Assembly: GCA_015066935.1 (NCBI GenBank)
Contig: SVNK01000010.1
Location: 2,159-66,158, forward strand
Length of the DNA: 64,000 nt
Origin: Ruminococcus sp.
GTDB taxonomy: Bacteria > Bacillota > Clostridia > Oscillospirales > Ruminococcaceae
Direction of reading: 5' to 3'
Below, in pieces: positions 41,188-64,000 of this stretch (position 1 is its first letter; each line of letters starts with the position of its first letter). The position numbers and the translations under genes were made by a program. The notes under the pieces are model-generated. The model was not told the origin of the DNA and searched no databases. It was given only the letters and a program-made list of their open reading frames with translations.

Positions 41188-41310
41188 GTGAAAAATAATT
41201 AATAATTTTCGTTTAGCCATGCCCTGAAATAGGGTGTGGCTAAGCGTGTAATTAAACAAATTAATTCTTTGAACAATTTTACAAAGAGTTACTAAAAGGA
41301 GGATATTAAG

Positions 41311-50173: not shown

Positions 50174-50249
50174 TCGATAATAACAGAAGTCTGAATGACC
50201 GCAAGCGTTATTATGTTTTTATTATTCGTTTATACTTTTTTGAATGATG

Positions 50250-50284
50250 AAGCAAAGCTGTAGAAATATGGCTTTGCTTTTTTG
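50250..50284 (+). terminator. Intrinsic terminator
   Basis: Hairpin agcaaagc..gctttgct followed by T6. Confidence 0.75.
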
Positions 50285-50434: not shown

Positions 50435-50464
50435 TTGACAATTGTTTGTGCTGTATGCTATAAT
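50435..50464 (+). promoter_or_regulatory. Consensus sigma-A promoter of the lipid operon
   Basis: TTGACA, 18-nt spacer, TATAAT. The predicted start site falls at the base of the hairpin at 50471-50527. Confidence 0.65.
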
Positions 50465-50543: not shown

Positions 50544-51218
50544 GTGGCGGTGATATTTTTGAAGAAACACAAAACATTCCTCTATCGATTCCTTCGTTTT
50601 TTGTTTGCACCACTGTTTCGGTTTCTTTTCCGTCCTGAAATCGTAGGAAAAGAGAATATCCCCGTAAGCGGCAGAGCTGTGATTGCAGGCAATCACAAGC
50701 ACGCATTTGACCCGATTCTCGTTGATATATGCACAAAACGTATTGTGCACACGCTTGCAAAAAAAGAGCTTCATGACGGCGCATTCGGTTTTATATTCCG
50801 TGGAGTGGGGACGATACCCGTTGACCTTCACAGTAAAGAAAACAAAGCTGCACTTGCTGCTGCGGTTGATGTGCTCAGGGGCGGCCATGTCGTAAATGTA
50901 TCTCCTGAGGCGAAGCGGAATTATACAGATGAACTGCTGCTTCCGTTCAAATACGGCACTGTATCTATGGCGCAGAAAACGAACAGTCCAATTGTTCCTT
51001 ATGCGATTTCGGGAGATTACAAGCTATTTTCAAATAATCTGAAGATTGTATTCGGAGAGCCGTTTTACACAGACGACAGGGAGCTTTCCGACGCAAACAG
51101 CGATCTGTATCATCGTGTGATGAAGCTGTTGATTGAGAACATGAGTCAATCGGAGCTGAAGAAAAAACATATCACAACGTTTGAAGAATGGAGCAGAAAA
51201 AATGAGAAAGCATCTTGA
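50544..51218 (+). CDS. plsC: Lysophospholipid (1-acyl-sn-glycerol-3-phosphate-type) acyltransferase
   Basis: An HX4D motif (NHKHAFD), a PEAKR block and a PIVP block are present. The start codon is uncertain (GTG 50544, or TTG 50559). Confidence 0.75.
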   Translation: MAVIFLKKHKTFLYRFLRFLFAPLFRFLFRPEIVGKENIPVSGRAVIAGNHKHAFDPILVDICTKRIVHTLAKKELHDGAFGFIFRGVGTIPVDLHSKENKAALAAAVDVLRGGHVVNVSPEAKRNYTDELLLPFKYGTVSMAQKTNSPIVPYAISGDYKLFSNNLKIVFGEPFYTDDRELSDANSDLYHRVMKLLIENMSQSELKKKHITTFEEWSRKNEKAS

Positions 51219-52848
51219 ATATCCCGATTGTTCGCTGTATGATTTCCTGAAACAAAATGCGAAGAATTATGAAAGCTCCTGCGCCCTGGAATATTTTGGC
51301 ATGAAGATTACATATCGCCGTTTGCTTGAGGAGATTCACCGCTGTGCCAAAGCTCTGCGACACATGGGAATACAAAATGGAGATACAGTATCGATCTGCC
51401 TGCCCAATATTCCACAAGCAGTGGTAGCTTTTTATGCGGTGAACTGCATCGGTGCAGTTGCAAATATGATTCATCCGCTTTCGGCTCAGGCAGAGATTCT
51501 GCATTATCTGACGGTTTCTCAAAGCCGCATGATCATCGCACTGGATATGACTTCGGAAAAAATACAGAAGGTTCTTCCGCAGACAAACGTTGCACATACG
51601 GTTTACGTCTCTGTTTCTGAGGAAATGCCTTTATATCTGAAGCTTGCGTATCATCTGACGAACCGTAAAAAAGCTGTTCTTCCCTGTGATGCTTTGGTAT
51701 GGAAAGATTTTCTTACACTTGATGGCTCGCAGGAGCTCGCTGCCGAATACCACGGAACAGGCAAGGAATGTGCTGTTATTCTGTACAGCGGCGGTACAAC
51801 GGGAAAGTCAAAGGGGATTATGCTTTCGAATCTTAATTTCAATGCGCTTGCACTTCAGAGCATCGAAAGCTGCGGCTGTCTGTGCAAAGGCGATAGGGTT
51901 CTCTCCATCATGCCGGTTTTTCACGGATTCGGACTTGGTGTGTGCATTCATACTGTACTGAATTTCGGAGGTACGGCAATCATTCTTCCGAAATTCAAGG
52001 CTTCTGAGTTTCATAAGCTTTTGTTCCGATATAAACCGAATGTTATTGCCGGCGTACCTGCGATATATGAGAGTCTGATACGCAGCAGAGCCTTTGAGGG
52101 CAAAGATTTTTCCTTTCTTAAATGTATAATTTCAGGCGGAGATTCTCTTGCCTCTGCCACTAAGGAGAAGCTGAACAGCCTGCTTGCCTCACATGGATGC
52201 AATGTAACTGTGCGTGAGGGCTATGGTCTGACTGAATGCGTTACAGGAAGCTGTCTTGTACCCGATCATTCAACTAAGCTTGACAGCGTAGGATTGCCCT
52301 ATCCCGATACGTTTTATCAGATTCTTGATCCCGAAAGCGGTGCGCCTCTGCCCGTAGGAGAGATTGGTGAAATTGTACTGCGTGGTCCGTCGGTTATGTT
52401 GGGTTATCTGAATGAACCTGCGGAAACTGCCGATACGCTCCGTCTGCACAGCGACGGGAATAAATGGCTTCATACCGGCGATCTGGGATACATGGACGAT
52501 GACGGCTATGTATATTTCCGACAGCGCCGCAAGAGGATGATTGTTTCCGGCGGATATAATATTTATCCCCAGATTATAGAAGAAATCATCAGTAGGCATC
52601 CTCAGGTTATGACGTGTGCCGTCGTTGGGATTCCCGATGAAATTATGGGACAGCGTGTCAAGGTTTATGCAGTGCTTTGCGGAGATGATTCGGATACGGA
52701 AAAGATTAAGACGGAGCTTATGGAAGCTTTGCGGCAGGAGATCGCAGGCTATGCATTGCCGCGCGAGATCGCCTTTGTGCCGTCTATGCCCCGAACCTTG
52801 GTCGGCAAAATTGCGTATACAGAACTGATTGGCATGGAGGAGCGTTAA
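51203..52848 (+). CDS. Acyl-AMP/acyl-CoA ligase (adenylate-forming enzyme)
   Basis: AMP-binding motifs are present: YSGGTTGKSKG, GYGLTE and TGDLGYMDDDGY. It overlaps the plsC-like gene. Confidence 0.85.
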
Positions 52849-52849
52849 T

Positions 52850-54190
52850 ATGCAGAACGATAAGCGATTTTTACTCATTCATCCCGAAATTTCACGTACA
52901 AAATATAATTTTGCAGGTGTCATTGATAATGAGCCGCTGGAGCTGGAATACCTCTATGCATTGCTCAGACAAAACGGCTATGAGCCTGATATCTGGGACG
53001 GACAGGTGGAGAAAATTCCGCTGACCGAAAAGCTCAGAGCATTTCAGCCGGAATATGTATATATATGCGGACGCACACGGCAGGAAAACTTCATGAAGGA
53101 ATACTGCGCATCAGCAAAGGAAATATGCGGCAGTACGGTTTTTATCGGCGGACTGCATGCACAGCATAATTTCCATCGTTTTTACATCAATACAGCAGAT
53201 TATATCTTAAAAACCTTTGATATTTACAAGGTTTTTGATATTCTGGACGGTATGTCGCTTTCGGATATTGATGGAATCTGCTACCGTGATGGTCAGAACT
53301 GGACGGAAAATCCGTCACATCCCTTTGATATAAAACGGCTGCCTCTGCCTGACCGCAGTTATTTCTATGCGCATTCAGACAGATACCGTTATCTTGAACT
53401 GCTGCCGTGTGCCCACGTGCGTACAGCGTATTCATGCCCGTTTCGCTGCAGATTCTGCTATCGGAACCGCCTCAACTGCGGCGTGTATTCCGCACGTCCC
53501 ATTGAGGAGGTTGTGGAAGAAATCCAAAGCATTGACTGTGATAACATATACTTTATTGATGACGATTTTCTTATTGACGAAGAACGCATTCGTACATTTA
53601 TACGTCTTGTGAAAGAGAGGGGGATTCATAAGAAATATGTCTGCTATGGCAGGGCGGATTTTATTGCAAAGCATCCTGAGCTTATGGTACAGCTCAAGGA
53701 AACAGGCTTTTATTATATACTGGTGGGACTTGAAGCAATTGATGATACATTCCTGAATGAATACAACAAATGTTGTGATATGAACAGCAATATCAGAGCC
53801 GTCAAGATTCTCAATAAAGTCGGAATTAATATCATGGGTATGTTTATAGTGGGGCTTGATTTTACAGCAAAGGATTTTTCAAAGCTTTATCGGTGGATCA
53901 AGCAGCATAAGCTTCGTCATACGGCGATTTCTATATTTACTCCTGAGTTTTCTTCAGAGCTTATGGAGGAATACAAAAGCCGCCTGATTACGGAAAATCC
54001 CGAAGCGTGGGATTATCTTCATGTTGTTGCGAAGCCGTCAAGTCTCAGCGTCAGACGGTATTATTTTCATTATCATGTACTACTGGTAAAGCTGTTTTTG
54101 AAAGGTCAGCGAGAAGGAATCTACGATTTTATTGATTACAGCTATTATCTGAAATCGTTTTTTAAAAATATGTTCCGATTCGGAGGGTAA
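52850..54190 (+). CDS. Cobalamin-binding-domain radical SAM enzyme (class B)
   Basis: The N-terminal part is B12-binding-like and Rossmann-type (FLLIHPE.. YICGRT). It is followed by CPFRCRFCY (CxxxCxxC). The start overlaps the ligase stop region. Confidence 0.75.
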   Translation: MQNDKRFLLIHPEISRTKYNFAGVIDNEPLELEYLYALLRQNGYEPDIWDGQVEKIPLTEKLRAFQPEYVYICGRTRQENFMKEYCASAKEICGSTVFIGGLHAQHNFHRFYINTADYILKTFDIYKVFDILDGMSLSDIDGICYRDGQNWTENPSHPFDIKRLPLPDRSYFYAHSDRYRYLELLPCAHVRTAYSCPFRCRFCYRNRLNCGVYSARPIEEVVEEIQSIDCDNIYFIDDDFLIDEERIRTFIRLVKERGIHKKYVCYGRADFIAKHPELMVQLKETGFYYILVGLEAIDDTFLNEYNKCCDMNSNIRAVKILNKVGINIMGMFIVGLDFTAKDFSKLYRWIKQHKLRHTAISIFTPEFSSELMEEYKSRLITENPEAWDYLHVVAKPSSLSVRRYYFHYHVLLVKLFLKGQREGIYDFIDYSYYLKSFFKNMFRFGG

Positions 54191-54214
54191 GCAAGTAAGT
54201 AAGGAGGAGACTTT

Positions 54215-54880
54215 ATGCCTCAGAAAAATACCGTAAAAAAAATTATTCCGAGCAGGCTTGAAACGGGATTCCAGCAATTTTTATACAAGCATGTCGGAAA
54301 GCATATCCCTGAAAGTATGACGCCAAACCGGATGACGCTTGTTGGTGCACTTGGCGGACTGTTTGCGATTATCTGCACTCTGTTGACGCACATCTCGCCG
54401 TTTTTCTTTTTGGGAACGCTGGCAGGTCTGCTCGTGCATATTGTGGCGGATGACCTTGACGGCTATATTGCAAGAAACAGGAATATGTCCTCAAAAGCAG
54501 GCGCATATTTCGACCTGATTACTGACGTTATGTTTTCCACATTTCTCCTGCTTGCACTTGGACTTTCGCCCTATGCCAATATGGAGGTAATGGCATTTGC
54601 CGCACCTGTGTACGGAATTATCAACGTTACCGCAATGAATTACATCATCTATTGTAATGAATTTCTGTTTCCTCGGCTTGGACCGATTGAGGCTCATCTT
54701 ACATATGGTGCGGTTGCGGTTCTGAGTATGATATTCTGCGGAAAATCATTCTTCTGCATATTCGGTATGAACATCATGATTGCGGATATTGTGCTGTTTA
54801 TAGGGCTTATTCCGATGTACTACGAAATGTTCCGTCTGCAGATTCAGCTGTTTCGTAGGCTCAGGGAATCAGAGAGATGA
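54215..54880 (+). CDS. CDP-alcohol phosphatidyltransferase family membrane protein
   Basis: The signature D(x)2DG(x)2AR(x)8G(x)3D(x)3D reads DDLDGYIARNRNMSSKAGAYFDLITD. Several TM segments are present. Confidence 0.85.
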   Translation: MPQKNTVKKIIPSRLETGFQQFLYKHVGKHIPESMTPNRMTLVGALGGLFAIICTLLTHISPFFFLGTLAGLLVHIVADDLDGYIARNRNMSSKAGAYFDLITDVMFSTFLLLALGLSPYANMEVMAFAAPVYGIINVTAMNYIIYCNEFLFPRLGPIEAHLTYGAVAVLSMIFCGKSFFCIFGMNIMIADIVLFIGLIPMYYEMFRLQIQLFRRLRESER

Positions 54881-55518
54881 AAACGATATATATTTGTCTT
54901 GTTGCGGCACATACGGGGCTCGGGAAATTCGTGCGGAGGCTCACAGACTATCCCTATACGCATATTGCGGTCAGTAAGGATGAAAGTCTGACGGATTTTG
55001 TGACCTACTCGCGCAGAAAGCATTATGTGCCTCTGGACGCAGGGTTTATGCATGAATACCGCGATTATTATGCATTCGGAAAACACAGAACTGTCCGCAT
55101 GAAAGTGTATGCTCTGCCTGTTTCTGAGGCTGCCTATGCACGTATTATGCAGTTTATAGGTGCTTGTGAAAGCGATGCCGCACAGATGTTTAATCTGTTT
55201 TCAATGGTCACCATGCCGTTATTTCATGGCTTTCGGATTTACAAGGCGCATAATTGCATGTCGTTTACGGCAAGAATTCTGGAGCTTTCCGAAACAGTAC
55301 CCATGAACAAGCCCTACTGGCGATATGATATACATGAGATGGACAGGCTTCTTGATGGACATCTTTATTTTGAGGGTGAACTTGAACGGACAGACTCTCC
55401 TGATTACGAAAGCTACATGGAGAAGCCTCCTTTTGCGAAAAGACTTTCCGTGTCTGCAAAAACTATTATAACACTGACAAAACGTTGTATGTTCGCACGC
55501 AGCAGAATCGAGGATTGA
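54877..55518 (+). CDS. Hypothetical protein with permuted His..Cys (LRAT/YaeF-type NlpC/P60-like) arrangement
   Basis: YPYTHIAVS is followed about 100 aa later by AHNCMSFTARIL, which resembles the NCEHF-type Cys motif. The ATGA overlaps the upstream stop. Confidence 0.4.
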   Translation: MKTIYICLVAAHTGLGKFVRRLTDYPYTHIAVSKDESLTDFVTYSRRKHYVPLDAGFMHEYRDYYAFGKHRTVRMKVYALPVSEAAYARIMQFIGACESDAAQMFNLFSMVTMPLFHGFRIYKAHNCMSFTARILELSETVPMNKPYWRYDIHEMDRLLDGHLYFEGELERTDSPDYESYMEKPPFAKRLSVSAKTIITLTKRCMFARSRIED

Positions 55519-55844
55519 TACAGAATGAGGTCGATATTATCCGAACAAATGCGGTGCTCTCCACGAAGTATTTCATGCTGTTTGCACGTATTGAGAGCCT
55601 TATTGCGGGTGAATCCATCGAAACGGTATTGCTGCGTGCAACAGTTGGATTCCGAATCAATATGACGGAGATTCTGAAAGGCTTCGGCTTTTCTCATGTT
55701 TATACAGCGGTGGATGAAACAGAAGTCAAACGGTGTCCGGCATATCTCAGCGAGCAGCCGAAATCAGCTATGGTTATCTGCGCACTGCAGGGCTTACGTG
55801 CATACCTTGGCAGAACTACGGTTTCTCCGCCGGATAATAAAAGA

Positions 55845-57620
55845 ATGCTGATGGAGAAAAAAGGAATGAAAGCATTGATTTTCAATTCAGGGCTTGGCAG
55901 CAGAATAGGCAGCCTGACCGAGAATATTCCGAAGTGTCTGTTGAAGCTCAGAAGCGGTGAAAGCATTTTTGCAAGGCAGCTCCGCATTTTATCGGAATGC
56001 GGTATCACCGATGTGGTTGTCACAACAGGAAAATATGAAGCCAAGCTTATTGCTGAAGCAAAGAGGCAAAGCGGGATATCAGTACAGTTTGTCAATAACC
56101 CTCTGTATGCCTCGACCAATTATATTTACTCGCTGTATCTTGCAGGTGAATATCTGGATGATTCAGTTTTAATGCTGCATGGAGATCTGGTTTTTGATAG
56201 GAGTCTTGTGCAGGCAATGCTTGCTGATGAGCGTCCCGATCTTTGCCTTATCAACAGGCAGATTCCCAAGCCTCAAAAGGATTTCAAGGGCAGAATAGAG
56301 GACGGTCGGTTACTGGAGGTTTCGGTGCATATTTTTGATGCGCAGTGCTATGCGCTCCAGCCGATGTATAAGCTTTCCCGCAATACCATGACAAAATGGC
56401 TTGCCCGAACAGAGCAGATGATACACTCAGGATTTACAGGTGTGTACGCGGAAGATGCGCTAAACTACATTGCAGATTCGCTGCATATTGAGGCTATGTC
56501 CTACGCACCGTATTACATCAACGAAATTGATACGCCGCAGGACTATGTACGCGTTTGTGCGGAAATAGAGCGCTATGAAAACGGAGTCAGGTATTCTGTT
56601 TCCTCACTGCAGTCGTTTCTTGCGGAATATCATGCCAGATGTCCGTTTTTTATCATGGGCAGACATCTGTTTGAGAGTGATACTGACCGTTTTCTTGATA
56701 CTCTTGGGATTCCCGTCGGCAGATATTTCGATGTTAAGGAAAACCCGAGCGATGAGAGTGCGGCAGATGCTCTTCGTGCTTTTTTGGAGTATCAGGGCGA
56801 TTTGATTGTTTCTATCGGCGGAGGAAGTGCAATTGATACGGCAAAGGCTGTGAAATTCAGCTTGCTGGATTCTTCTGAATATGGTAACCTTGTGCATATA
56901 GCGATACCCACAACGGCAGGCTCGGGAAGTGAAGCTACGCAGTTTGCGGTTATTTATCGGAACGGCACAAAGTGTTCTCTTGAGCATCCTTCATTACTGC
57001 CTCAGCGATGTATTCTGGACAGCTCGTTGCTTTATAGTATGACAGCACAGCAGCGCAAAGTCTCATTGCTTGATGCGTTTTGTCATAGCATAGAGAGTTT
57101 GCTCTCACATCATGCGTCTGCGGAAAGCAGGGAGCATGCGGCGTCTGCTCTGGATTCGCTGCTTGCATATTATCTTCCGTTTGTAAACGGAGAAGCTTCT
57201 GTTTGTGATGCGGTATTTGCCGCCGCAAATGATGCAGGCAGGGCGATTAATCTTGCCAAGACCTCGTTCGCTCATGCCATGAGTTATGTGCTGACCTCAG
57301 AGCATGGCATCAAGCATGGACAGGCAGCGGCTATCTGTTTGATATACGGTCTGAGGTATGCCGAGCAAATGGGTTTTCAGCCAAAAGCACTTTATGAATT
57401 GCGGCAGGTACTAGGGTGCAGGGGAGAAGAAACTGCCTCTGAGAAATTTGCTGCAATATACCGCAGTATGCAGCCTGAAGAGTATATCTGTCTGCGGAGT
57501 GCGGATCCGACTGAACTTGCAAGCAAGGTAAATGCACAGCGCATTTCAAATTCGGTGATTGCATTCAGTGAGACAGACCTGCTTAACATTTATACTAAGA
57601 TTGTGAAAGCATATTCGTAA
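55845..57620 (+). CDS. Fusion protein: LicC-type nucleotidyl(cytidylyl)transferase + iron-containing (group III) alcohol dehydrogenase
   Basis: The N-terminal domain reads MKALIFNSGLGSRIGSLTENIPKCLL, NNPLYASTNYIYSLYL and NEIDTPQDY (LicC-like). The C-terminal domain reads IGGGSAIDTAKA, PTTAGSGSE and HAMSY..HGIKHGQA (Fe-ADH). The ORF is open from 55485; candidate starts are 55845, 55851 and 55866. Confidence 0.75.
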   Translation: MLMEKKGMKALIFNSGLGSRIGSLTENIPKCLLKLRSGESIFARQLRILSECGITDVVVTTGKYEAKLIAEAKRQSGISVQFVNNPLYASTNYIYSLYLAGEYLDDSVLMLHGDLVFDRSLVQAMLADERPDLCLINRQIPKPQKDFKGRIEDGRLLEVSVHIFDAQCYALQPMYKLSRNTMTKWLARTEQMIHSGFTGVYAEDALNYIADSLHIEAMSYAPYYINEIDTPQDYVRVCAEIERYENGVRYSVSSLQSFLAEYHARCPFFIMGRHLFESDTDRFLDTLGIPVGRYFDVKENPSDESAADALRAFLEYQGDLIVSIGGGSAIDTAKAVKFSLLDSSEYGNLVHIAIPTTAGSGSEATQFAVIYRNGTKCSLEHPSLLPQRCILDSSLLYSMTAQQRKVSLLDAFCHSIESLLSHHASAESREHAASALDSLLAYYLPFVNGEASVCDAVFAAANDAGRAINLAKTSFAHAMSYVLTSEHGIKHGQAAAICLIYGLRYAEQMGFQPKALYELRQVLGCRGEETASEKFAAIYRSMQPEEYICLRSADPTELASKVNAQRISNSVIAFSETDLLNIYTKIVKAYS

Positions 57621-57999: not shown

Positions 58000-58088
58000 T
58001 TCTCTCTTTTTCTGTCTACTTTATTGACATTGGACCATCTTAACTGCACCTTTTTCAGGTATCGGCTTTTTACGATTAGCTTGGGCAT
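57996..58088 (-). pseudogene. 30-codon stub with a strong RBS, possibly the truncated 5' end of a mobilisation relaxase gene
   Basis: AGGAGTG lies 5 nt before the ATG. The peptide MPKLIVKSRYLKK.. is then cut off where the IS3 remnant begins. Confidence 0.3.
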
Positions 58089-58171
58089 AGCATCACTCCT
58101 TTCAGTGGGGATTGTTTTTGCTTCACAAATATGATATAATGATTGTAGTTTTTGTTGATGAGGTGATATGT

Positions 58172-59194
58172 ATGAAAATCGAAATGGGAGAATCTCTTTT
58201 TTATTCTTGGCTGCGTCATGTGAAGGAATGTCAGATAGTACAAACAAACTGGAAGGTATCATCTCAGTGGTCACTATCAAATGCAGAAGAATTAGAAAGA
58301 ATGATGAAGCTTATCGACAATCATTACACACAAAAGTATGACTATGCCATTTTCAAAAACAATTCATCTCTATCTCAGTTGCTACAGCAAGGTGAATGTG
58401 ATGTTCTTGGTATATCTATTCAATCTGATGGGAACCAATACTATGCTGTTGATGTAGCTTTTCATGAAGCAGGATTAAATTATGGCAGTCGAGATACAAC
58501 GGTGATGAAAGTCCTTGAAAAATGTGCAAGGACAGCATTTTGCCTTAATGGGTACATGACAACCAAAGAAGCTGAAATCATTTTTGCATCACCGAAGATC
58601 AATCCATCTGTTCTTTCTGATCTTGAACCTTGTATTGAAGAAATGAATACTATATTCAGCGAAAACGGATATAGCTATATTTTTCGCATTATCGCAAATG
58701 AGGAATATAACGATTCAGTACTGAAGCCTATCCTGTTGGCAAGTGATGGTGTAGCGGATACCTCAGAATTGTTTTTACGCAGTTATCAAATGTATAAAAT
58801 GTTCTCTGACGAAGCAACTAACAGAACCCCAAGAACAAGAACGACTCGAAAAACACATGCTGATGGACTGGACTATACAGAGGCAGATGTATACAAGGAA
58901 TTAAAAATCGGACAGCTTGCTCAAAAAGTTCTGGGACGTTTGTTGATCGATGGCTATGCAACCAATGAAGAAATAGTTGCAATGCAAACACTGGGATATA
59001 GCAAACAGAACTTTGATTTGCAATATCCGCTTTTGGTAGAAGAGAATTCAGATTTTGATCATGTTAGGTATTATGCCAAACCAATTCTCATCAATGGTGT
59101 GAGTTACAGGATGTGTTCGCAATGGTTTGAGACCTCTGCAAATAATGATAGACCATATTTGCTGAAATGGATTGAAGAACACAGCACAAAATAA
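58172..59194 (+). CDS. Orphan 340-aa hypothetical protein (AT-rich cargo gene)
   Basis: GAGGTGA lies upstream of the ATG at 58172, and TATAAT is at about 58135. I recognise no family. The N-terminal half has E..ECDVLGI..AVDVAFHE spacing, weakly reminiscent of a restriction-endonuclease-like fold. Confidence 0.55.
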   Translation: MKIEMGESLFYSWLRHVKECQIVQTNWKVSSQWSLSNAEELERMMKLIDNHYTQKYDYAIFKNNSSLSQLLQQGECDVLGISIQSDGNQYYAVDVAFHEAGLNYGSRDTTVMKVLEKCARTAFCLNGYMTTKEAEIIFASPKINPSVLSDLEPCIEEMNTIFSENGYSYIFRIIANEEYNDSVLKPILLASDGVADTSELFLRSYQMYKMFSDEATNRTPRTRTTRKTHADGLDYTEADVYKELKIGQLAQKVLGRLLIDGYATNEEIVAMQTLGYSKQNFDLQYPLLVEENSDFDHVRYYAKPILINGVSYRMCSQWFETSANNDRPYLLKWIEEHSTK

Positions 59195-59206
59195 TTTTCA
59201 GTATGT

Positions 59207-59240
59207 AAAAGCCGTATCGCACTGATACGGCTTTTGCTTT
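59207..59240 (+). terminator. Intrinsic terminator after the orphan gene
   Basis: Hairpin aaaagccgtatc-gcact-gatacggctttt. Confidence 0.8.
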
Positions 59241-59359
59241 ATTCTTTCTGATACCTGACAGCATCCTCGCAGTCAATGACACCATTTATTTGACGGTTAC
59301 CCAAAAAAACCCTTAGGTGATCCATGGTTTTGCGAATAAAATTTTAGTGTCCATATACG

Positions 59360-59388
59360 CAAAAAAGTCCGAATAATCGGATTTTTTT
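59360..59388. terminator. Bidirectional terminator, positioned as the native terminator of the tRNA fragment
   Basis: Hairpin aaaaaagtccga-ataa-tcggatttttttt. Confidence 0.7.
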
Positions 59389-59417
59389 TGGCATGTGATC
59401 TTTTCGTCACATATAGA

Positions 59418-59474
59418 TGGTGCGGGTGACAGGACTTGAACCTGCACCGAGTTGCCCCGACTGGCACCTAAGAG
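59418..59474 (-). tRNA. 3' fragment of a tRNA-Leu(UAG): anticodon loop, long variable arm, T-arm, 3' acceptor strand and CCA, with no 5' half
   Basis: The reverse complement reads cttaggtgccagtcggggcaactcggtgcaggttcaagtcctgtcacccgcacca. The complementary 5' acceptor strand gcgggtg and a D-arm are absent upstream. Confidence 0.7.
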
Positions 59475-59493
59475 TAGCGTCACGTCAGTGGTT

Positions 59494-59874
59494 TTATTCT
59501 ATCTTGTTTCCATTTCTTATGAGTGCAGTCATAACGACAACAAATTCTGATGGCAGCGGTGGGAAGGTCTGGTTTGATTTCAGGTATTCAAACAGTTCGT
59601 GGTTTTTGTTGACCGTTCTGCAAAACCACGCCGCATCAAGTGCATTCTTTATAGCACCGTTTACACTCATTGGACCAATTGAATATTTCTGACCGACGAT
59701 TTTCAATATGCTTTTATATGTATCACTTTCAATCGGAGTATTCATCCAGAGATAGATAACATCCTTTACATAATTGAAGCCTTTGTATTTTTGTGATATA
59801 CCTAATTCGATCAGTGTTTCGGAAATATGCTGTATGAGAGTTTCATCGGTTGTAATAAGCGTTGTTGTGTTCAT
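59494..59874 (-). CDS. Stand-alone Spo0A C-terminal (DNA-binding) domain-like protein
   Basis: 126 aa. ISETLIELGISQKYKGFNYVKDVI.. MSVNGAIKNALDAAW.. PLPSEFVVVMTALI parallels the Spo0A effector domain. There is no receiver domain. Confidence 0.6.
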   Translation of the reverse strand: MNTTTLITTDETLIQHISETLIELGISQKYKGFNYVKDVIYLWMNTPIESDTYKSILKIVGQKYSIGPMSVNGAIKNALDAAWFCRTVNKNHELFEYLKSNQTFPPLPSEFVVVMTALIRNGNKIE

Positions 59875-59892
59875 AAAATTATTAATCCTTTT

Positions 59893-60010
59893 TTATATGA
59901 TTTTATCGTCGGAGATTTCGATAATACGGTCGCACTGTTTTGCGATTTCAAGGTCGTGTGTGACGATATTATCTCAGCTTTTCAAGTGCATTTTTACCTG
60001 TTCTGCAGAG
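59893..60010 (-). pseudogene. C-terminal remnant of an ABC ATPase (MacB/LolD-like)
   Basis: The reverse strand reads ..DNIVTHDLEIAKQCDRIIEISDDKII*, preceded by stops and frame breaks. Confidence 0.55.
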
Positions 60011-60018
60011 GGCATTCA

Positions 60019-60618
60019 TTAAAACTCTATTTTAATACGTTTATCGGTTGGGGACAGAGTAGCCCACACCCACATATCCTGTTCTTCAAGATTATTCCAG
60101 TTTTGGGGCGTGAAATTCTGTCTGAACAACTGATAAGCAACGCGAACCTTGATTGTTTCGCCTTTCGGGACGGTCAGACTTCCAGAACCCGATAACGCAG
60201 TGCCGCTCAATTCGGAGGAAATTTTCGAAGATAACTGCATATCGGGAGAAGTGTACCAATCTATTCCCATAACAGGAAAGCTTAGCAGCTGCATATCGTT
60301 TTCTGCAGTACCGTCATTAGTTATGGAATAAGTAAGAATCAAACATTTCTCGTAATGAATCATCGGAGCATTCAGAGAATAATTATTAATCAGTTCCTCC
60401 GCATCGACTATTTCCGCATTATCAAGCGAAACGGAATAGCCTTTGTTATATCCGCCTCCGTAAGACATATTATCGTTGAAATCCATTTTCTCATTCATTG
60501 AAAAATACTCTTTGGGGAATCTGTCTTTTATCTTGAATCCATGATTCAGGTTATAGAATTTTACTCCCCATATTAATGCAAGCGCAAGAAATGCACTACT
60601 AATTATCAGTTTTTTCAT
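60019..60618 (-). CDS. Membrane-anchored or secreted DUF4352-like beta-sandwich protein
   Basis: It starts MKKLIISSAFLALALIW and continues with a beta-rich body. It is the last intact gene of the ABC operon. Confidence 0.5.
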   Translation of the reverse strand: MKKLIISSAFLALALIWGVKFYNLNHGFKIKDRFPKEYFSMNEKMDFNDNMSYGGGYNKGYSVSLDNAEIVDAEELINNYSLNAPMIHYEKCLILTYSITNDGTAENDMQLLSFPVMGIDWYTSPDMQLSSKISSELSGTALSGSGSLTVPKGETIKVRVAYQLFRQNFTPQNWNNLEEQDMWVWATLSPTDKRIKIEF

Positions 60619-61285
60619 TTGCCGAAACCTCCTCGGAAATGACCTGTTCATCAATTATTTTTCCGTGTTCGATTTTGTAGATAATATCACACATTTCCTG
60701 AAGAATTGCGTGGTCGTGACAGGTTACGGTAATAAGTGCGCCACGTTTCTTTTCGGAGGCGATTATTTTTTTGACAATTTCAACTCCGCTTGAATCGAGG
60801 GCGTTTGTCGGCTCATCGAGAATAATCAGTTCAGGAGCTTCCATTATAGCCGAGGCTATTCCGAGACGCTGTTTCATTCCGAGAGAATACTTGCGGTATT
60901 TCTTCTTGTCATCGGGATCAAGTCCGACACGGCTAATCGTTTTTTTGATAATATCGTCTGTGATTTTTCCTTTAATCGACGCTAAGAGCTTGAGGTTGTC
61001 AAATCCGCTGAGTCCTCCGAGAAAAGCGGGATTTTCGATGAGTATACCCATATTTTCGGGGAAGTCTATATCTTTTCCGAGCTTTTTTTCATCAAAAAAT
61101 ATATCACCTTTTGTAGGGAGTATCAATCCTGAAATGAGTCGCATAAGCATTGTTTTTCCGCAGCCGTTATAACCACAAAGACCGTATACCGTACCGCTTT
61201 TCAAAGTAAGATTAACACTATCGGCAACAGTATTGCCGCCGATTATTTTTGTTACATTTTTTAGTGTTATGGTCATGTTATTCAC
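60599..61285 (-). CDS. ABC transporter ATP-binding protein (ABC-2 / LanF-BcrA-like)
   Basis: Walker A GYNGCGKT, signature YSLGMKQR, Walker B LIILDEP. Confidence 0.9.
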   Translation of the reverse strand: MNNMTITLKNVTKIIGGNTVADSVNLTLKSGTVYGLCGYNGCGKTMLMRLISGLILPTKGDIFFDEKKLGKDIDFPENMGILIENPAFLGGLSGFDNLKLLASIKGKITDDIIKKTISRVGLDPDDKKKYRKYSLGMKQRLGIASAIMEAPELIILDEPTNALDSSGVEIVKKIIASEKKRGALITVTCHDHAILQEMCDIIYKIEHGKIIDEQVISEEVSANEKTDN

Positions 61286-62142
61286 TCCTTATCGGGCAGG
61301 ATATTTGTTTTCTTGAAATATATTCCGCCTATAATCATACACAGCGCAGTAATTGTAAGACAAATAATAATACCAACGTGCGTGTTATATCCTTTTTTAA
61401 GATAATTCATGTTATAAAGCACCATTGCAGAGCGTGTAAATGCAATTTGCGAATCCGAAAAGGTTCCTGCAATAATGAGTACAACAGAAATAATATAACT
61501 GTAAACAGGCTTTATGACCAGACACAGTGTCATCTGAATCATATTAAGTGCAAGAATAACAGTAAGCGGTGCGATAATAATACAAAGCCTGTCCATGATA
61601 CCTATGCTTTTGCACGATGCACTTTCATAGACCACGCTTTCATTTGTCAGCGCATCGGTTAACTTATAATTATTTTCGGGAGTTAATATAAAATCATGAA
61701 GTACTCCATACAAAAAGATTGTTCCTATAATAAGAATGTAGCACCATACGGTTGCTGCGATGCACCAGATGCATTTTGAAAGCCACCATGACTCTCTTTT
61801 TCGGCAGCGTGTAAGTATTTGTGTACCGAATTGTGTCAGGTCGTTATGCATATATTCAAATCCGATAAACACAGCAAAAACAAATATTGCTATCCAGAAA
61901 TACGGAAGCTCCATTAAAGAATTATCTTTGGGAAGCTTTGAAATGGGATCGTTTCCACGAAAAACAAGCGTAAACAAATCAAAAATCGTTATTTTACCGA
62001 ACGAGCTTCCGTTAGAAAGAATTGCCACCAGATTATCATTGTACATACATTCAAAAAAGCAAAGTATCGGTACAACAAGAAATCTTCTGTTTTTTATGAT
62101 ACCCTGATAAATGTCGCAGCACATCAATTTACAGACATTCAT
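61282..62142 (-). CDS. ABC-2-type transporter permease
   Basis: 286 aa, about 6 TM segments, overlapping both neighbours. Confidence 0.7.
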   Translation of the reverse strand: MNVCKLMCCDIYQGIIKNRRFLVVPILCFFECMYNDNLVAILSNGSSFGKITIFDLFTLVFRGNDPISKLPKDNSLMELPYFWIAIFVFAVFIGFEYMHNDLTQFGTQILTRCRKRESWWLSKCIWCIAATVWCYILIIGTIFLYGVLHDFILTPENNYKLTDALTNESVVYESASCKSIGIMDRLCIIIAPLTVILALNMIQMTLCLVIKPVYSYIISVVLIIAGTFSDSQIAFTRSAMVLYNMNYLKKGYNTHVGIIICLTITALCMIIGGIYFKKTNILPDKE

Positions 62143-62956
62143 ATTTACGCCCCCTTAATGCAAAGAATAAAGATGGGATAATAATTATTACAGCTATATT
62201 GGTAAGCAGGTGGGGAAGATAATTGGTCGACAGAGGTGCGGCGTAAAGCATATCAGACCACACTAAACCGATAGCACGTCCATTTATAGTAACATTATAA
62301 CGCAAAATGATATACGTTCCTATGATTTGCTGTACTGTAAATGTAAGAAAGGTTGAAATAAGGGCAACGGTGTATTTTTTTGTAAGCATTCCGACTCCGA
62401 GAGCGATGCAGACCATTGCACCTCCCCACAGAAAAGCAATGCCCGTCCACGCAAGAAGAAACAGCAAAGGATGTGTATAGAATAATTGCGGACAAAATGA
62501 GAATGCATGAACCGATGATGTACCGACTGCAACTATGGGATAATAAGATGGATAAAAAGTTGAAATCATAAGGAAATGCATTAGTATCGCAAAAGCAAAT
62601 ACTATTCCGCCGCTTATGAATGATACTATATATTTTGCGAGGAAGTATTTTTTTCGGCTTGTTCTGGATAATATCTGGTTAACATACCCGATATTTCTGT
62701 CATATCCGACAGTCCAGCTGTATGCCAGAGTGGTGAGAAGCGGAAGCAGTGAAAAAAGATACACAGCTTCATCCATTCCACGAAATGTGCCAATCCATTT
62801 TATAAATACACTTGTGTAAACGTCATAGCCGTCCTTATACAGCTCATATTTTGACAGAGCATCTAATATTACTATGATTAATGCTGTGAGCAGTGAAATG
62901 TAAAAAGACACGCTGTGCATCATTCTTTTCCATTCAAATCGGATTATTTTCATCAT
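62129..62956 (-). CDS. ABC-2-type transporter permease
   Basis: 275 aa, about 6 TM segments, overlapping both neighbours. Confidence 0.7.
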   Translation of the reverse strand: MMKIIRFEWKRMMHSVSFYISLLTALIIVILDALSKYELYKDGYDVYTSVFIKWIGTFRGMDEAVYLFSLLPLLTTLAYSWTVGYDRNIGYVNQILSRTSRKKYFLAKYIVSFISGGIVFAFAILMHFLMISTFYPSYYPIVAVGTSSVHAFSFCPQLFYTHPLLFLLAWTGIAFLWGGAMVCIALGVGMLTKKYTVALISTFLTFTVQQIIGTYIILRYNVTINGRAIGLVWSDMLYAAPLSTNYLPHLLTNIAVIIIIPSLFFALRGRKYECL

Positions 62957-63729
62957 TTATTATCACCTCCAAGTCCTAAGTTCACAACAGTAAAGGGTAA
63001 TTCATCGGAAAATGAATCATCATCACGACCATTAGCAAATGTAACATCTTCAAGAGCCACTTTACGTGTATCAAGCAAATAGCCTATAATAATATCTTTT
63101 TTCTCACCCGGCTGAAGGTTTATTTTGGTATAAAAATGAAAAGGCAAACTTTCATCCGGCGGCAAAACCTGATCAAAATACTCTTCGGTGGCATAAGCAA
63201 CTCCGCCAAATCTTTCAAGCCAAAAATCATACTCGCCAAAATATTCGGGCTCCCAAAAATGATCTATGGAAACGGCATCAACATTTTCTACTGTCATATA
63301 TGTTTTTATCATTATGAATCCTTTTAAAAATTCTGTTGTTTCAGCATCATAATTAAAACCGTCAGCGATAAGCACTTGCTGTAGTTCATCGTATTTCATT
63401 CCTGCATCGTTCAGACTGTCGTATAGCTCGCATTTATTTATTGTGAGGTAAAGGTGTCCGCTGTGTACAGGCATTACTACACAAAAGCGTTCGCCAAGCT
63501 CGGCTGTTGCGGGGACTTCGGAATATGGAACGTTAGGCAAAAGCAGTGAGTCGCCGCCGTTGTTGTCCGTCGTATCGCTGCCGGATATTGTACCGTTTAC
63601 GTTTTCCTCTATCGGCTGTCCGAGAGTAGCTTCTGATGTTTCTTTTTTTGATATGTCTATATTTCCGACAGAACAGCCTGTTGTCAACAGCATAGCTGCG
63701 GCTGTCAGTATTATAAGTCTGGTTTTCAT
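62953..63729 (-). CDS. Lipoprotein (DUF4352-like), paralog A
   Basis: The lipobox is MKTRLIILTAAAMLLTTGC. The ATGA overlaps the downstream permease start. Confidence 0.7.
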   Translation of the reverse strand: MKTRLIILTAAAMLLTTGCSVGNIDISKKETSEATLGQPIEENVNGTISGSDTTDNNGGDSLLLPNVPYSEVPATAELGERFCVVMPVHSGHLYLTINKCELYDSLNDAGMKYDELQQVLIADGFNYDAETTEFLKGFIMIKTYMTVENVDAVSIDHFWEPEYFGEYDFWLERFGGVAYATEEYFDQVLPPDESLPFHFYTKINLQPGEKKDIIIGYLLDTRKVALEDVTFANGRDDDSFSDELPFTVVNLGLGGDNK

Positions 63730-64000
63730 TTATTATCACCGCCAAGCCCTAAGTTCACAACAGTAAAGGGTAATTCATCGGGAAATGAATCATCATCTTG
63801 ACCATTAGCAAACGTAACATCTTCAAGAGCCACTTTACGTGTATCAAGCAAATACCCTACAATAATATCCTTTTTCTCACCCGGCTGAAGATTAAATTTG
63901 AAAAAATAAGGAGAAGGCGAAGCATGGTCAAAATACTCTCCGGTGGCATAATCAACTCCGCCAAATCTACCAAGGCTAAAATCATACTCGCCGTATATTT
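63726..64000 (-). CDS. Lipoprotein paralog B, C-terminal part (5' end outside window)
   Basis: The reverse frame is open to the window edge and ends ..GQDDDSFPDELPFTVVNLGLGGDNK*. This is almost identical to the C-terminus of paralog A. Its TGA overlaps the ATG of paralog A. Confidence 0.7.
   Translation of the reverse strand, partial: IYGEYDFSLGRFGGVDYATGEYFDHASPSPYFFKFNLQPGEKKDIIVGYLLDTRKVALEDVTFANGQDDDSFPDELPFTVVNLGLGGDNK

Follow-up and report, generated by a model that had tools for sequence, protein, structure and literature searches.

The forward-strand genes at 50544-57620 of the 64,000-nucleotide stretch analysed here (the window) form a single operon, which is probably a reduced version of one that is conserved in Clostridia and serves to make a lipid bearing a phosphonate; it probably still runs on phosphonoacetaldehyde or 2-hydroxyethylphosphonate (HEP) from elsewhere. 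Two deletions in the lineage of the window have taken the genes for PEP mutase (Ppm) and phosphonopyruvate decarboxylase (Ppd), except for a scar of ~300 nt. The locus is apparently a strain-lineage copy of a widespread, undescribed gut and rumen Clostridia operon for an activated phosphonate, CMP-2-hydroxyethylphosphonate (CMP-HEP), which seems to be built into a lipid. A literature search found no publication on the gene cluster.

The operon and its scar

The trio described in the earlier note, consisting of a radical SAM enzyme, a CDP-alcohol transferase and a fusion of a nucleotidyltransferase (NTP) domain with an iron-dependent alcohol dehydrogenase (Fe-ADH), is the 3′ part of this operon, which also contains genes for an acyltransferase, an acyl ligase and a 213-aa protein:

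50435..50464, + strand: promoter-like site, TTGACA-18-TATAAT with TG, 80 nt 5′ of the first gene
50544..51218, + strand: PlsC-type acyltransferase, 224 aa (Pfam Acyltransferase, E 4e-22)
51181..52848, + strand: FadD-like acyl-AMP/CoA ligase, 555 aa (AMP-binding, E 5e-78; AMP-binding_C)
52850..54190, + strand: class-B (B12-binding domain) radical SAM enzyme, 446 aa (Radical_SAM, E 1e-16)
54215..54880, + strand: CDP-alcohol phosphotransferase-family membrane enzyme, 221 aa (CDP-OH_P_transf, E 3e-10)
54877..55518, + strand: 213-aa protein, predicted permuted NlpC/P60 (YiiX/TseH/LRAT-like) Cys-His enzyme (Foldseek on AF2 model)
55551..55640, + strand: Ppm remnant, aa ~159-190 (tblastn)
55641..55859, + strand: Ppd remnant, aa ~294-368, the C-terminal ~75 aa (tblastn, TIGR03297)
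55866..56546, + strand: N-terminal domain of the fusion, LicC/PntC-like nucleotidyl(cytidylyl)transferase (NTP_transf_3, E 2e-10)
56595..57620, + strand: C-terminal domain of the fusion, Fe-ADH, predicted phosphonoacetaldehyde reductase (Fe-ADH, E 5e-30; ADH_Fe_C)

The preceding Na/Ala symporter gene is ended by a hairpin terminator (50249-50280), and the promoter-like site, predicted by consensus match alone, agrees with the consensus at 12 of 12 positions. The gene arrangement is not a matter of chance, as the identical order recurs in 80 loci of different species. Pfam and NCBIfam models and motifs bear out the earlier domain calls for the trio, and the CDP-alcohol transferase does lie between its partners; the radical SAM gene and the fusion are, however, separated by two genes and not by one, that of the 213-aa protein having been omitted.

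The true fusion gene begins with the ATG at 55866, ends at 57620 and encodes 584 aa, as in the 99%-identical P0001. The ORF list gives instead a 711-aa frame (55485-57620), in which Pfam finds NTP_transf_3/NTP_transferase and Fe-ADH/ADH_Fe_C; its first 127 codons, read there as an N-terminal extension, are the ppm and ppd remnants. The NTP domain carries a GLGSR motif at aa 9 and matches LicC (1jyk, E 9e-11) and, over aa 2-227, the T. denticola nucleotidyltransferase/aminotransferase 6pd1, the PntC structure (E 6.5e-10). The Fe-ADH domain has GGGS, D-x3-H and H-x13-HG metal/NAD motifs, and among NCBIfam models it scores highest with TIGR03405, the Fe-ADH of phosphonate clusters (E 2e-36; 125 bits, cutoff 424). 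In the comparison proposed by the earlier note, glycerol and G1P dehydrogenases gave only 3e-7 and 2e-4, respectively.

That note had found no PEP mutase or Ppd in the window. This is correct for intact genes, since tblastn with several Ppm and Ppd queries and a six-frame search for EDKxxxxxNS detected no other Ppm or Ppd in the 64 kb, but fragments of both lie within the very region of the trio. The scar (55551-55859) occupies the site where relatives have intact ppm and ppd, and the genes are missing because a lineage-specific deletion left only these remnants. The Ppm remnant is 75-77% identical over 30-32 aa to the Ppm of two related loci (L089 and L005) and matches that of a third (L003) with E 5.5e-8 in tblastn; the catalytic EDKxxxxxNS region (aa ~125 of Ppm) is missing from it. 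The Ppd remnant is 62% identical to aa 290-368 of the L005 Ppd (E 2e-28) and matches positions 277-358 of 360 in TIGR03297, and the junction between the remnants is ambiguous over ~21 nt. Three independent metagenome contigs with 98.7-98.9% nt identity to the window (L004, L090 and L091) carry the same scar, and in L089, the next relative at 82% nt identity, ppm is intact and the contig runs out after the beginning of ppd. The deletion is recent, as 62-77% identity between the scar and the relatives' intact genes has been preserved. With ppm and ppd deleted, C-P bond formation is therefore lost from the locus's own genes.

Relatives and the proposed pathway

In relatives, which are about 50-80% identical, the order is acyltransferase, ligase, radical SAM enzyme, CDP-alcohol transferase, 213-aa protein, Ppm, Ppd and NTP/ADH fusion. 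Their Ppm carry the EDKxxxxxNS motif, and the fusion of the window is 54-66% identical to orthologues encoded straight after Ppm-Ppd, while its radical SAM enzyme is 72-85% identical to orthologues from ppm-bearing loci. Ppm and Ppd directly 5′ of the fusion, or Ppd fused to it, support a phosphonate-pathway enzyme, as do its PntC and LicC matches. The phosphonate reading of the earlier note is supported by these neighbours, the TIGR03405 match and the PntC match, but not in its framing as a triad with the radical SAM enzyme.

The five-gene "lipid core" including the radical SAM gene is syntenic in 80 genomes (the acyltransferase gene in every related locus whose contig extends that far), and 32 of the 80 loci have the full Ppm, Ppd, ADH and NTP set. 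The supply module is otherwise ADH and NTP only, an OPA-family MFS transporter with an NTP transferase, or none nearby. The same transporter family includes AepP, for which import of AEP has been proven (PMC8316502). The same four activities are also combined in other ways: Ppd, NTP and ADH in a single tri-fusion, or a Fom1-like NTP-CTP_transf-Ppm protein alongside a separate ADH (L031). ADH and NTP without ppm/ppd are also found in L012, L014 and L044; in such loci of other lineages the genes are intact and motif-bearing, with no scar, which implies long-term maintenance. About 20 core loci with adequate flanks, such as those of R. albus 8, KH2T6 and AR67 and R. flavefaciens 007c, have neither an HEP nor an NTP module within ~8 kb, so that a phosphonate may be dispensable for the core. 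The partner most often found with the core is the full HEP module, and its spread over all major clades of the radical SAM tree suggests that it is ancestral.

Domain identities, motifs, deletion and scars, synteny and supply-module turnover are direct observations; the chemical steps, the lipid product, its acceptor and the radical SAM substrate are what we infer. In the complete form, Ppm and Ppd would yield phosphonoacetaldehyde, which the Fe-ADH domain would reduce to HEP and the fused LicC/PntC-like domain would convert to CMP-HEP. The CDP-alcohol-family transferase would then place the phosphonyl group of CMP-HEP on an alcohol acceptor and free the CMP; a lipid, for instance diacylglycerol, is the most likely acceptor. 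The ligase, the acyltransferase and the Cys-His enzyme would add or move acyl chains. The radical SAM enzyme may carry out a radical modification, probably C-methylation, whose target would be the lipid moiety or, in the manner of Fom3, the CMP-HEP head group. In the window, another locus or the environment would probably supply the operon with phosphonoacetaldehyde or HEP.

The lipid product is suggested by the acyl-handling annotations together with a weak fold match of the 213-aa protein. The acyltransferase has an HX4D motif at aa 51 and also matches Aas-type acyl-ACP-phospholipid acyltransferase models, and the top NCBIfam matches of the ligase are long-chain-fatty-acid-CoA ligases, all below cutoff. 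The 213-aa protein has no Pfam, NCBIfam or PDB sequence match, and none of the 412 members of its family is named; H29 and N126-C127 are invariant among them. The top Foldseek matches of its AF2 model (pLDDT 89), TseH (6v98, prob 0.97, E 7e-3), the Cys peptidase 3kw0 and YiiX (2if6), weakly suggest an NlpC/P60-like fold, and the protein may act as a Cys-His enzyme. The CDP-alcohol transferase has several hydrophobic segments and the complete motif D(x2)DG(x2)AR(x8)G(x3)D(x3)D at aa 79-104. Its nearest solved structures, DIPPS (4mnd), CEPT1 (8gyw), AF2299 and CHPT1, all take soluble CDP-alcohol donors.

Comparison with known systems

In the early fosfomycin pathway of Streptomyces, Fom1 is a cytidylyltransferase-Ppm protein, Fom2 is Ppd, FomC is an Fe-ADH and Fom3 is a B12 radical SAM enzyme. 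The relatives likewise encode Ppm, Ppd, Fe-ADH, cytidylyltransferase and a class-B radical SAM enzyme, in L031 with the Fom1-like fusion, and CMP-HEP is likely to be an intermediate common to both pathways. The window cluster differs in having neither HppE epoxidase nor FomD, in the fusion of ADH to the cytidylyltransferase, in its loss of ppm/ppd and in the hosts of the operon, which are anaerobic gut and rumen Clostridia. It adds the CDP-alcohol transferase, acyltransferase, acyl ligase and NlpC/P60-like protein, and CMP would therefore serve group transfer rather than be transient.

The transferase shares family and signature motif with the eukaryotic CEPT1/CHPT1 and archaeal IPCT-DIPPS, which take a soluble CDP-alcohol donor, but has just 221 aa and matches those structures at E 1e-4 to 6e-6. 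In eukaryotic microbes, CMP-AEP is used by ethanolamine phosphotransferase for phosphonolipids. The acyltransferase and ligase resemble the pair of activities in Aas (acyl-ACP synthetase/2-acyl-GPE acyltransferase), although they are two separate proteins with matches far below cutoffs. In Pnt pathways, including the predicted phosphonolipid clusters named 'Burkholderiales_CDP-OH', a LicC-like enzyme, whose PntC structure is that matched here, activates the Ppm-Ppd phosphonate, and a phospholipid-synthesis-type transferase lies in the cluster, with a cell-surface or lipid product predicted only; in place of an Fe-ADH/HEP branch they use AEP and the transaminase AEPT, and they have no B12 radical SAM, acyl ligase or NlpC/P60-like gene (PMC6697681, PMC8942020). 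In HEP-decorated exopolysaccharide loci, for example of Stackebrandtia nassauensis (PMC8942020), a member of the fusion family (41% identity) is encoded after Ppm-Ppd among Wzx/Wzy glycosyltransferase genes (L008), but radical SAM, CDP-alcohol transferase and acyl genes are absent and a glycan, not a lipid, is decorated.

The radical SAM enzyme and alternative readings

The radical SAM frame may start at 52829 or 52850. The enzyme has a CX3CX2C motif at aa 196 (CPFRCRFC) and a weak B12-binding match (26.3 bits against a cutoff of 32.1). Its NCBIfam matches are HpnR (E 9e-36, aa 13-413), BchE (2e-27) and PhpK (1e-24), all far below family cutoffs; with the class-B models HpnR and BchE it aligns along its whole length. 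HpnR is a hopanoid C-3 methylase and PhpK a P-methylase, while BchE is not a methylase.

A tentative reading is that the hydrophobic portion of a lipid is the target of this enzyme and of the acyl enzymes, through C-methylation in mid-chain or at the terminus, for instance, or through other radical tailoring, with phosphonate as only one of several interchangeable head groups fed to the CDP-alcohol transferase. The constant core with its varying supply module points this way, and so do HpnR as the top curated match for the window enzyme and all 100 relatives scanned, and a match to a ladderane-lipid B12 radical SAM model. All these models are matched far below their cutoffs, however, and the absent modules may simply sit elsewhere in those genomes.

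It is doubtful whether the enzyme is instead a Fom3 analogue converting CMP-HEP to CMP-2-hydroxypropylphosphonate for installation by the CDP-alcohol transferase, which was the logic of the earlier note. ADH, cytidylyltransferase and radical SAM enzyme do share one operon, Fom3 needs a CMP-conjugated substrate (PMC8158854), the HEP module is the commonest and most widely spread partner, and the curated relatives include C- and P-methylases. This logic is not supported by the loci, however: the enzyme always accompanies acyl-handling genes and the CDP-alcohol transferase, also in the ~20 loci lacking a nearby module, and is well conserved there and in imported-precursor loci, whereas the HEP fusions of polysaccharide loci come without any radical SAM enzyme. 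Moreover, the nearest curated family is a lipid C-methylase, the second a non-methylase, and HppE and FomD-like genes are absent from the window. As the head-group supply varies around a constant radical SAM core, a Fom3-like role is therefore only possible.

It is unlikely that the operon has been decaying and functionless since the loss of ppm and ppd. Both committed steps are deleted, the scar shows more nt differences than the flanking genes (1.7-1.9% against 0.45-1.4%), and an A-run just 5′ of the fusion start varies in length, shifting the scar's frame between strains. Yet none of the six remaining genes is truncated and their catalytic motifs are kept, pN/pS against three ~99% contigs is below 1 in each gene (0.04-0.6, from 3-15 substitutions per gene; 0.04-0.18 for the radical SAM gene), the predicted promoter is a perfect consensus, and scar-free loci lacking ppm/ppd persist in other lineages. 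With its genes intact and seemingly constrained, the reduced operon therefore probably still works on outside phosphonoacetaldehyde or HEP.

Conversion of a phospho-aldehyde through a phospho-alcohol to a CDP-alcohol that is then transferred is very improbable: the lack of intact ppm/ppd in 64 kb, OPA-type MFS variants that could import organophosphates such as glycerol-3-phosphate, and the resemblance of the NTP domain to inositol-1-phosphate cytidylyltransferase would agree with it, but the recency of the deletion, the orthologues of the fusion directly after Ppm-Ppd and the phosphonate-cluster model nearest to the ADH domain argue against it. The full cluster is carried by the cultured strains Anaerosporobacter mobilis DSM 15930 and Butyrivibrio sp. 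LB2008.

Operon layout and the ppm/ppd remnants

Closely packed or overlapping open reading frames fill positions 50544-57620 (+) of the window. A promoter-like site with a 12/12 match to the consensus precedes them, directly after the terminator hairpin that ends the preceding symporter gene. Because of this close spacing and of the promoter-like site and terminator at the 5′ end, the stretch 52850-57620, in which the earlier note had proposed a fosfomycin-type triad of Fe-alcohol dehydrogenase (Fe-ADH), cytidylyltransferase and B12-type radical SAM enzyme (rSAM), is regarded as part of a single operon, of which it covers the 3′ two-thirds; the gene for a 213-aa protein within it had been overlooked. 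A motif search recovered all catalytic signatures of the acyltransferase, the rSAM, the transferase and the fusion.

Operon of the window
50435-50464, promoter-like site, 12/12 consensus
50544-51218, + strand, PlsC-type acyltransferase; HX4D motif HKHAFD at aa 51; Pfam 79 bits
51181-52848, + strand, FadD-like AMP-forming ligase
52850-54190, + strand, radical SAM protein with N-terminal B12-type domain; CX3CX2C
54215-54880, + strand, CDP-alcohol phosphotransferase-family membrane protein; signature motif complete
54877-55518, + strand, 213-aa protein without a family match
55485-57620, + strand, 711-aa ORF of the mechanical list; nucleotidyltransferase and Fe-alcohol-dehydrogenase domains

Residues 44-124 of the 711-aa ORF correspond to the C-terminal 80 positions of the NCBIfam model for phosphonopyruvate decarboxylase (Ppd). 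Since homologues of the nucleotidyltransferase (NTP)/ADH fusion are 560-610 aa long and a 99%-identical one has 584 aa, its true start is placed at ATG 55866. Upstream of this codon, tblastn reveals a remnant of PEP mutase (Ppm) at 55551-55640, a 30-aa internal fragment corresponding to Ppm aa ~159-190 with 75-77% identity to the nearest Ppm, and, abutting it directly, a remnant of Ppd at 55641-55859, which covers the C-terminal ~75 aa (Ppd aa ~294-368; 62% identity). When Ppm and Ppd proteins of relatives were compared with the entire 64-kb window by tblastn, these two fragments and nothing else were found. Missing from the window are the N-terminal half of Ppm with the EDKxxxxxNS motif, the C-terminal end of the same protein, and Ppd up to residue ~290; this motif is absent from all six frames of the 64 kb, and no intact Ppd, a TPP enzyme, was found in the window beyond its C-terminal ~75 aa. 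The statement of the earlier note that the window has no Ppm or Ppd thus stands for intact genes but not for fragments, both of which lie at 55551-55859. Among related loci, the Ppd gene is intact, and the EDKxxxxxNS motif is present in L003, L008, L031 and L089. The remainder of the window, where housekeeping genes and cellulosomal xylanases lie, has no phnW, phosphonate transporter or second ppm gene.

The identical scar occurs in three contigs with 98.7-98.9% identity from other sequencing runs, the near-identical contigs being those of samples SRR22318480, SRR31077515 and SRR32129102. In the next relative, L089 (82% nucleotide identity), ppm is complete and is followed by the first part of ppd, at which the contig ends. 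The ppm/ppd deletion is judged to be real, recent and lineage-specific. A poly-A run at window 55840-55866, immediately ahead of the start codon of the fusion, differs by 1 nt from that of the near-identical contigs L004 and L090. Wherever such a contig extends as far as this codon, the difference shifts the scar into another reading frame than that of the fusion; since the frame is broken elsewhere, the 711-aa ORF is considered to be an accident of the window sequence. Its status as a genuine tri-domain protein was rejected because gene calls on the ~99% contigs give 584 aa, because the 1-nt indel takes the scar out of frame in other strains, and because the extension consists of mere Ppm and Ppd fragments. 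In L004, a 49-nt terminal inverted duplicate at the contig end (5960-6012) most likely stems from the assembly of this Logan contig and is not biology.

The window copy is read as an eroded member of an operon family and is almost certainly a ppm/ppd-deleted copy of an operon for 2-hydroxyethylphosphonate (HEP). The phosphonate assignment made in the earlier note is upheld for the family, and the deletion accounts for the caveat attached to it there. What the window offers is a dated case of a pathway being eroded rather than a working C-P pathway.

As for whether the reduced operon is still maintained, synonymous change exceeds non-synonymous change in the retained genes when the window is compared with the ~99% contigs. 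With counts of 3-15 per gene, the rSAM has a pN/pS of 0.04-0.18 and the fusion one of 0.25-0.34; values of 0.2-0.6 were obtained for those of the remaining retained genes in which more than five differences are countable. The densest differences fall in the scar; these counts being small, the signal of selection is suggestive only. In L012, L014 and L044, which belong to other species, ADH and NTP genes adjoin the core with neither ppm/ppd nor a scar; the genes are intact, and the tested motif patterns are complete in L012 and L044 and partial in L014. These ppm/ppd-less loci would lend independent support to retention of the reduced operon.

The operon family and its proposed head-group supply

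Scanning of an rSAM alignment against one genome per species yielded 80 loci, from cultured Ruminococcus albus, R. flavefaciens, Butyrivibrio and Anaerosporobacter mobilis DSM 15930 and from many Lachnospiraceae/Oscillospiraceae MAGs. A core in the order acyltransferase, ligase, rSAM, CDP-alcohol transferase and 213-aa protein is syntenic in nearly all loci with sufficient contig reach; the exceptions are L073, with the rSAM alone, and L012, L046 and L081, which lack the ligase. Relatives with a fusion 54-66% identical to that of the window carry, in this order, the acyltransferase, ligase, rSAM, CDP-alcohol transferase, a 210-216-aa protein, PEP mutase, Ppd and the NTP/ADH fusion. Two proteins of 936-941 aa have Ppd joined to NTP/ADH, and a member of the fusion family at 41% identity lies behind Ppm-Ppd in a Wzx/Wzy polysaccharide locus without rSAM.

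Module variants in related loci
L001 5952-8777, tri-fusion of Ppd, NTP and ADH
L008 7567-11824, CTP_transf_like+Ppm, Ppd and NTP/ADH in a Wzx/Wzy polysaccharide locus without rSAM
L031 12654-16913, NTP+CTP_transf_like+Ppm protein (Fom1-like) and free ADH
L053 12686-14661, MFS and stand-alone NTP transferase replacing the HEP module; likewise L061, L070, L076 and L084

The genes that would supply the head group vary around this core. First, the complete HEP module of Ppm, Ppd, ADH and NTP is found in 32 of the 80 loci, some of which have a Fom1-like NTP-CTP_transf-Ppm protein with a free ADH and some of which have the module upstream in divergent orientation. Second, three loci of the 80 have ADH and NTP only. 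Third, 4-5 of the 80 have an MFS transporter of the organophosphate:phosphate antiporter type (best models PgtP/UhpC/GlpT), followed by a stand-alone NTP transferase. AepP, a proven AEP importer, belongs to this transporter family (PMC8316502), and the occurrence of MFS and NTP transferase in place of the HEP module suggests uptake of a head-group precursor. Finally, about 20 of the 80 loci have no HEP or NTP module in flanks of 4-9 kb. Six cultured R. albus and R. flavefaciens isolates (L020, L023, L028, L030, L033 and L042) carry the five-gene core with no phosphonate or nucleotidyltransferase gene within ~8 kb, and its neighbours there are unrelated (LRR protein, permease, nitroreductase and polysaccharide epimerase). 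Strains in which only the core was seen include R. albus 8, KH2T6 and AR67 and R. flavefaciens 007c. In a Ruminococcus Ppm-domain search aimed at R. albus, the matches listed were CTP_transf_like-Ppm proteins from many taxa. In a neighbour-joining tree of the rSAM proteins, the module states are interspersed, and each of the major clades includes loci with the full module. The simplest reading would be that the family was ancestrally tied to de novo HEP synthesis, which was then repeatedly lost, moved elsewhere or replaced by uptake.

Predicted chemistry and comparison with known systems

The best NCBIfam model for the ADH domain of the fusion is the phosphonate-cluster Fe-ADH TIGR03405 (E 2e-36; 125 bits against a cutoff of 424); models of glycerol or glycerol-1-phosphate dehydrogenases, with which the earlier note had proposed to compare it, score far more poorly, which favours the phosphonate assignment. 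The metal and NAD motifs GGGS, D-x3-H and H-x13-HG are present. The NTP domain matches LicC (1jyk, E 9e-11) and the Treponema denticola PntC structure (6pd1, E 6.5e-10) and has the G-x-G-[ST]-R motif as GLGSR, in keeping with the PntC/LicC type; its orthologues adjoin Ppd/Ppm or are fused with them. Of the three Fom steps said to reappear in the window, those of the ADH and the cytidylyltransferase very likely share the chemistry of the fosfomycin pathway. The window lacks the first two steps of the pathway.

The CDP-alcohol transferase has multiple hydrophobic segments, a Pfam score of 41 bits (cutoff 22) and the complete motif D(x2)DG(x2)AR(x8)G(x3)D(x3)D, as DDLDGYIARNRNMSSKAGAYFDLITD at aa 79. 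By structure matches and NCBIfam it is closest to DIPPS, CEPT1, AF2299 and CHPT1, whose donors are soluble CDP-alcohols, and more distant from CDP-diacylglycerol enzymes; CMP-HEP would fit as its donor. The 213-aa protein has an invariant His29 on a strand and an invariant Asn126-Cys127, with Cys127 beginning helix 127-138 (AF2 model, pLDDT 89). The best Foldseek matches of this model, TseH, a Bacillus cereus Cys peptidase and YiiX, are all of the permuted NlpC/P60 fold but weak (TseH with probability 0.97 but E 7e-3 and TM 0.41; YiiX with probability 0.28). This fold includes lipid acyltransferases and phospholipases of the LRAT family. Since the NlpC/P60-like protein, the PlsC-type acyltransferase and the FadD-type ligase point to acyl chemistry, a lipid is the preferred product of the operon family, with even or slightly better than even chances.

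The rSAM has its CX3CX2C motif as CPFRCRFC at aa 196. Its Pfam B12-binding score of 26.3 is below the cutoff of 32.1, but alignments with the HpnR and BchE models start at aa 6-13 and span the whole protein; with these alignments and the motif it is assigned to class B, the cobalamin-binding enzymes. The nearest curated family is HpnR, a hopanoid C-3 methylase, followed by BchE and PhpK, all far under cutoff and in a comparison whose models did not include Fom3. In an NCBIfam scan of 100 related representatives (25-55% identity), all preferred HpnR and none reached a cutoff, and sequence and profile searches of the PDB returned AprD4, OxsB, TsrM and 9ccb only. The enzyme is placed in an unnamed part of class B, and a Fom3-like function for it is doubtful. 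Because the constant partners of the rSAM are acyl and transfer enzymes rather than HEP enzymes, action on the lipid moiety instead of CMP-HEP is a serious rival. Relatives at 30-39% identity, for example the proteins P0252, P0254, P0256, P0267, P0269 and P0270, are 645-728 aa long. A few members of the rSAM family also match BioC/UbiE-type SAM methyltransferase models in the family scan, and some relatives therefore appear to be fused to a second methyltransferase domain.

Among known systems, those closest to the operon family are the early steps of fosfomycin biosynthesis (PMC8158854; Cho 2017, cited via PMC6697681), PntC-type phosphonyl tailoring (PMC6697681) and the AEP-based "Burkholderiales_CDP-OH" clusters, which are predicted to make phosphonolipids (PMC8942020). 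None of the three, as far as these sources describe them, combines HEP, a B12 rSAM, a CDP-alcohol transferase and acyl-handling genes. The 2022 inventory (PMC8942020) was confined to complete genomes, and neither Ruminococcus nor Butyrivibrio nor Lachnospiraceae is among the taxa that it mentions. A full-text literature search found no description of the operon family. No operon gene has a domain of the late fosfomycin enzymes, the HppE epoxidase and the FomD CMP hydrolase.

A wider proposal, rather unlikely to hold in all its parts, is that rumen and gut Clostridia, cultured Ruminococcus, Butyrivibrio and Anaerosporobacter included, possess an undescribed 2-hydroxyethyl(propyl)phosphonate lipid pathway, in which a CMP-phosphonate would be both the substrate of a Fom3-like B12 rSAM methylase, here unconnected with antibiotics, and the donor for a small CDP-alcohol transferase; de novo C-P bond formation would repeatedly have given way to salvage by means of an organophosphate-type MFS and a cytidylyltransferase, the window being one loss with its scars visible. 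Many bacterial surfaces are believed to carry phosphonates, and the HEP branch is known from antibiotics and a few exopolysaccharides; to our knowledge, the route to a phosphonolipid has been elucidated in hardly any bacterium. The operon family would add an HEP-derived phosphonate, probably attached to a lipid, in Firmicutes that are abundant fibre degraders of gut and rumen, and would give CMP-phosphonate chemistry and a class B radical SAM enzyme a new context. Natural variants without de novo synthesis hint at phosphonate salvage in the environment where phosphonates were first discovered, and cultured strains with the full set, among them Anaerosporobacter mobilis DSM 15930 and Butyrivibrio sp. 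LB2008, make the pathway directly testable; the operon of eight genes is also found in L003 and L066.

Other features of the window

Immediately 3′ of the operon, the GC content falls to 0.38-0.39 within 58000-64000. The ORFs at 58112-59194 (+) and 60019-60654 (-) and three ORFs within 61282-63729 (-) have no Pfam match, and an ABC ATPase at 60599-61285 is the sole one with a match among the ORFs named in this region, which may be an acquired island. A 910-aa protein at 33164-35896 has an EAL domain of the cyclic-di-GMP phosphodiesterase type, flanked on both sides by long stretches without annotation. The region 37339-44181 encodes two large enzymes with dockerins, one with the domains GH10+CBM4_9+dockerin+GH43+CBM6 and the other with GH30C+CBM4_9+dockerin+esterase; from these the host is taken to be a cellulosome-type fibre degrader, consistent with Ruminococcus-like relatives.
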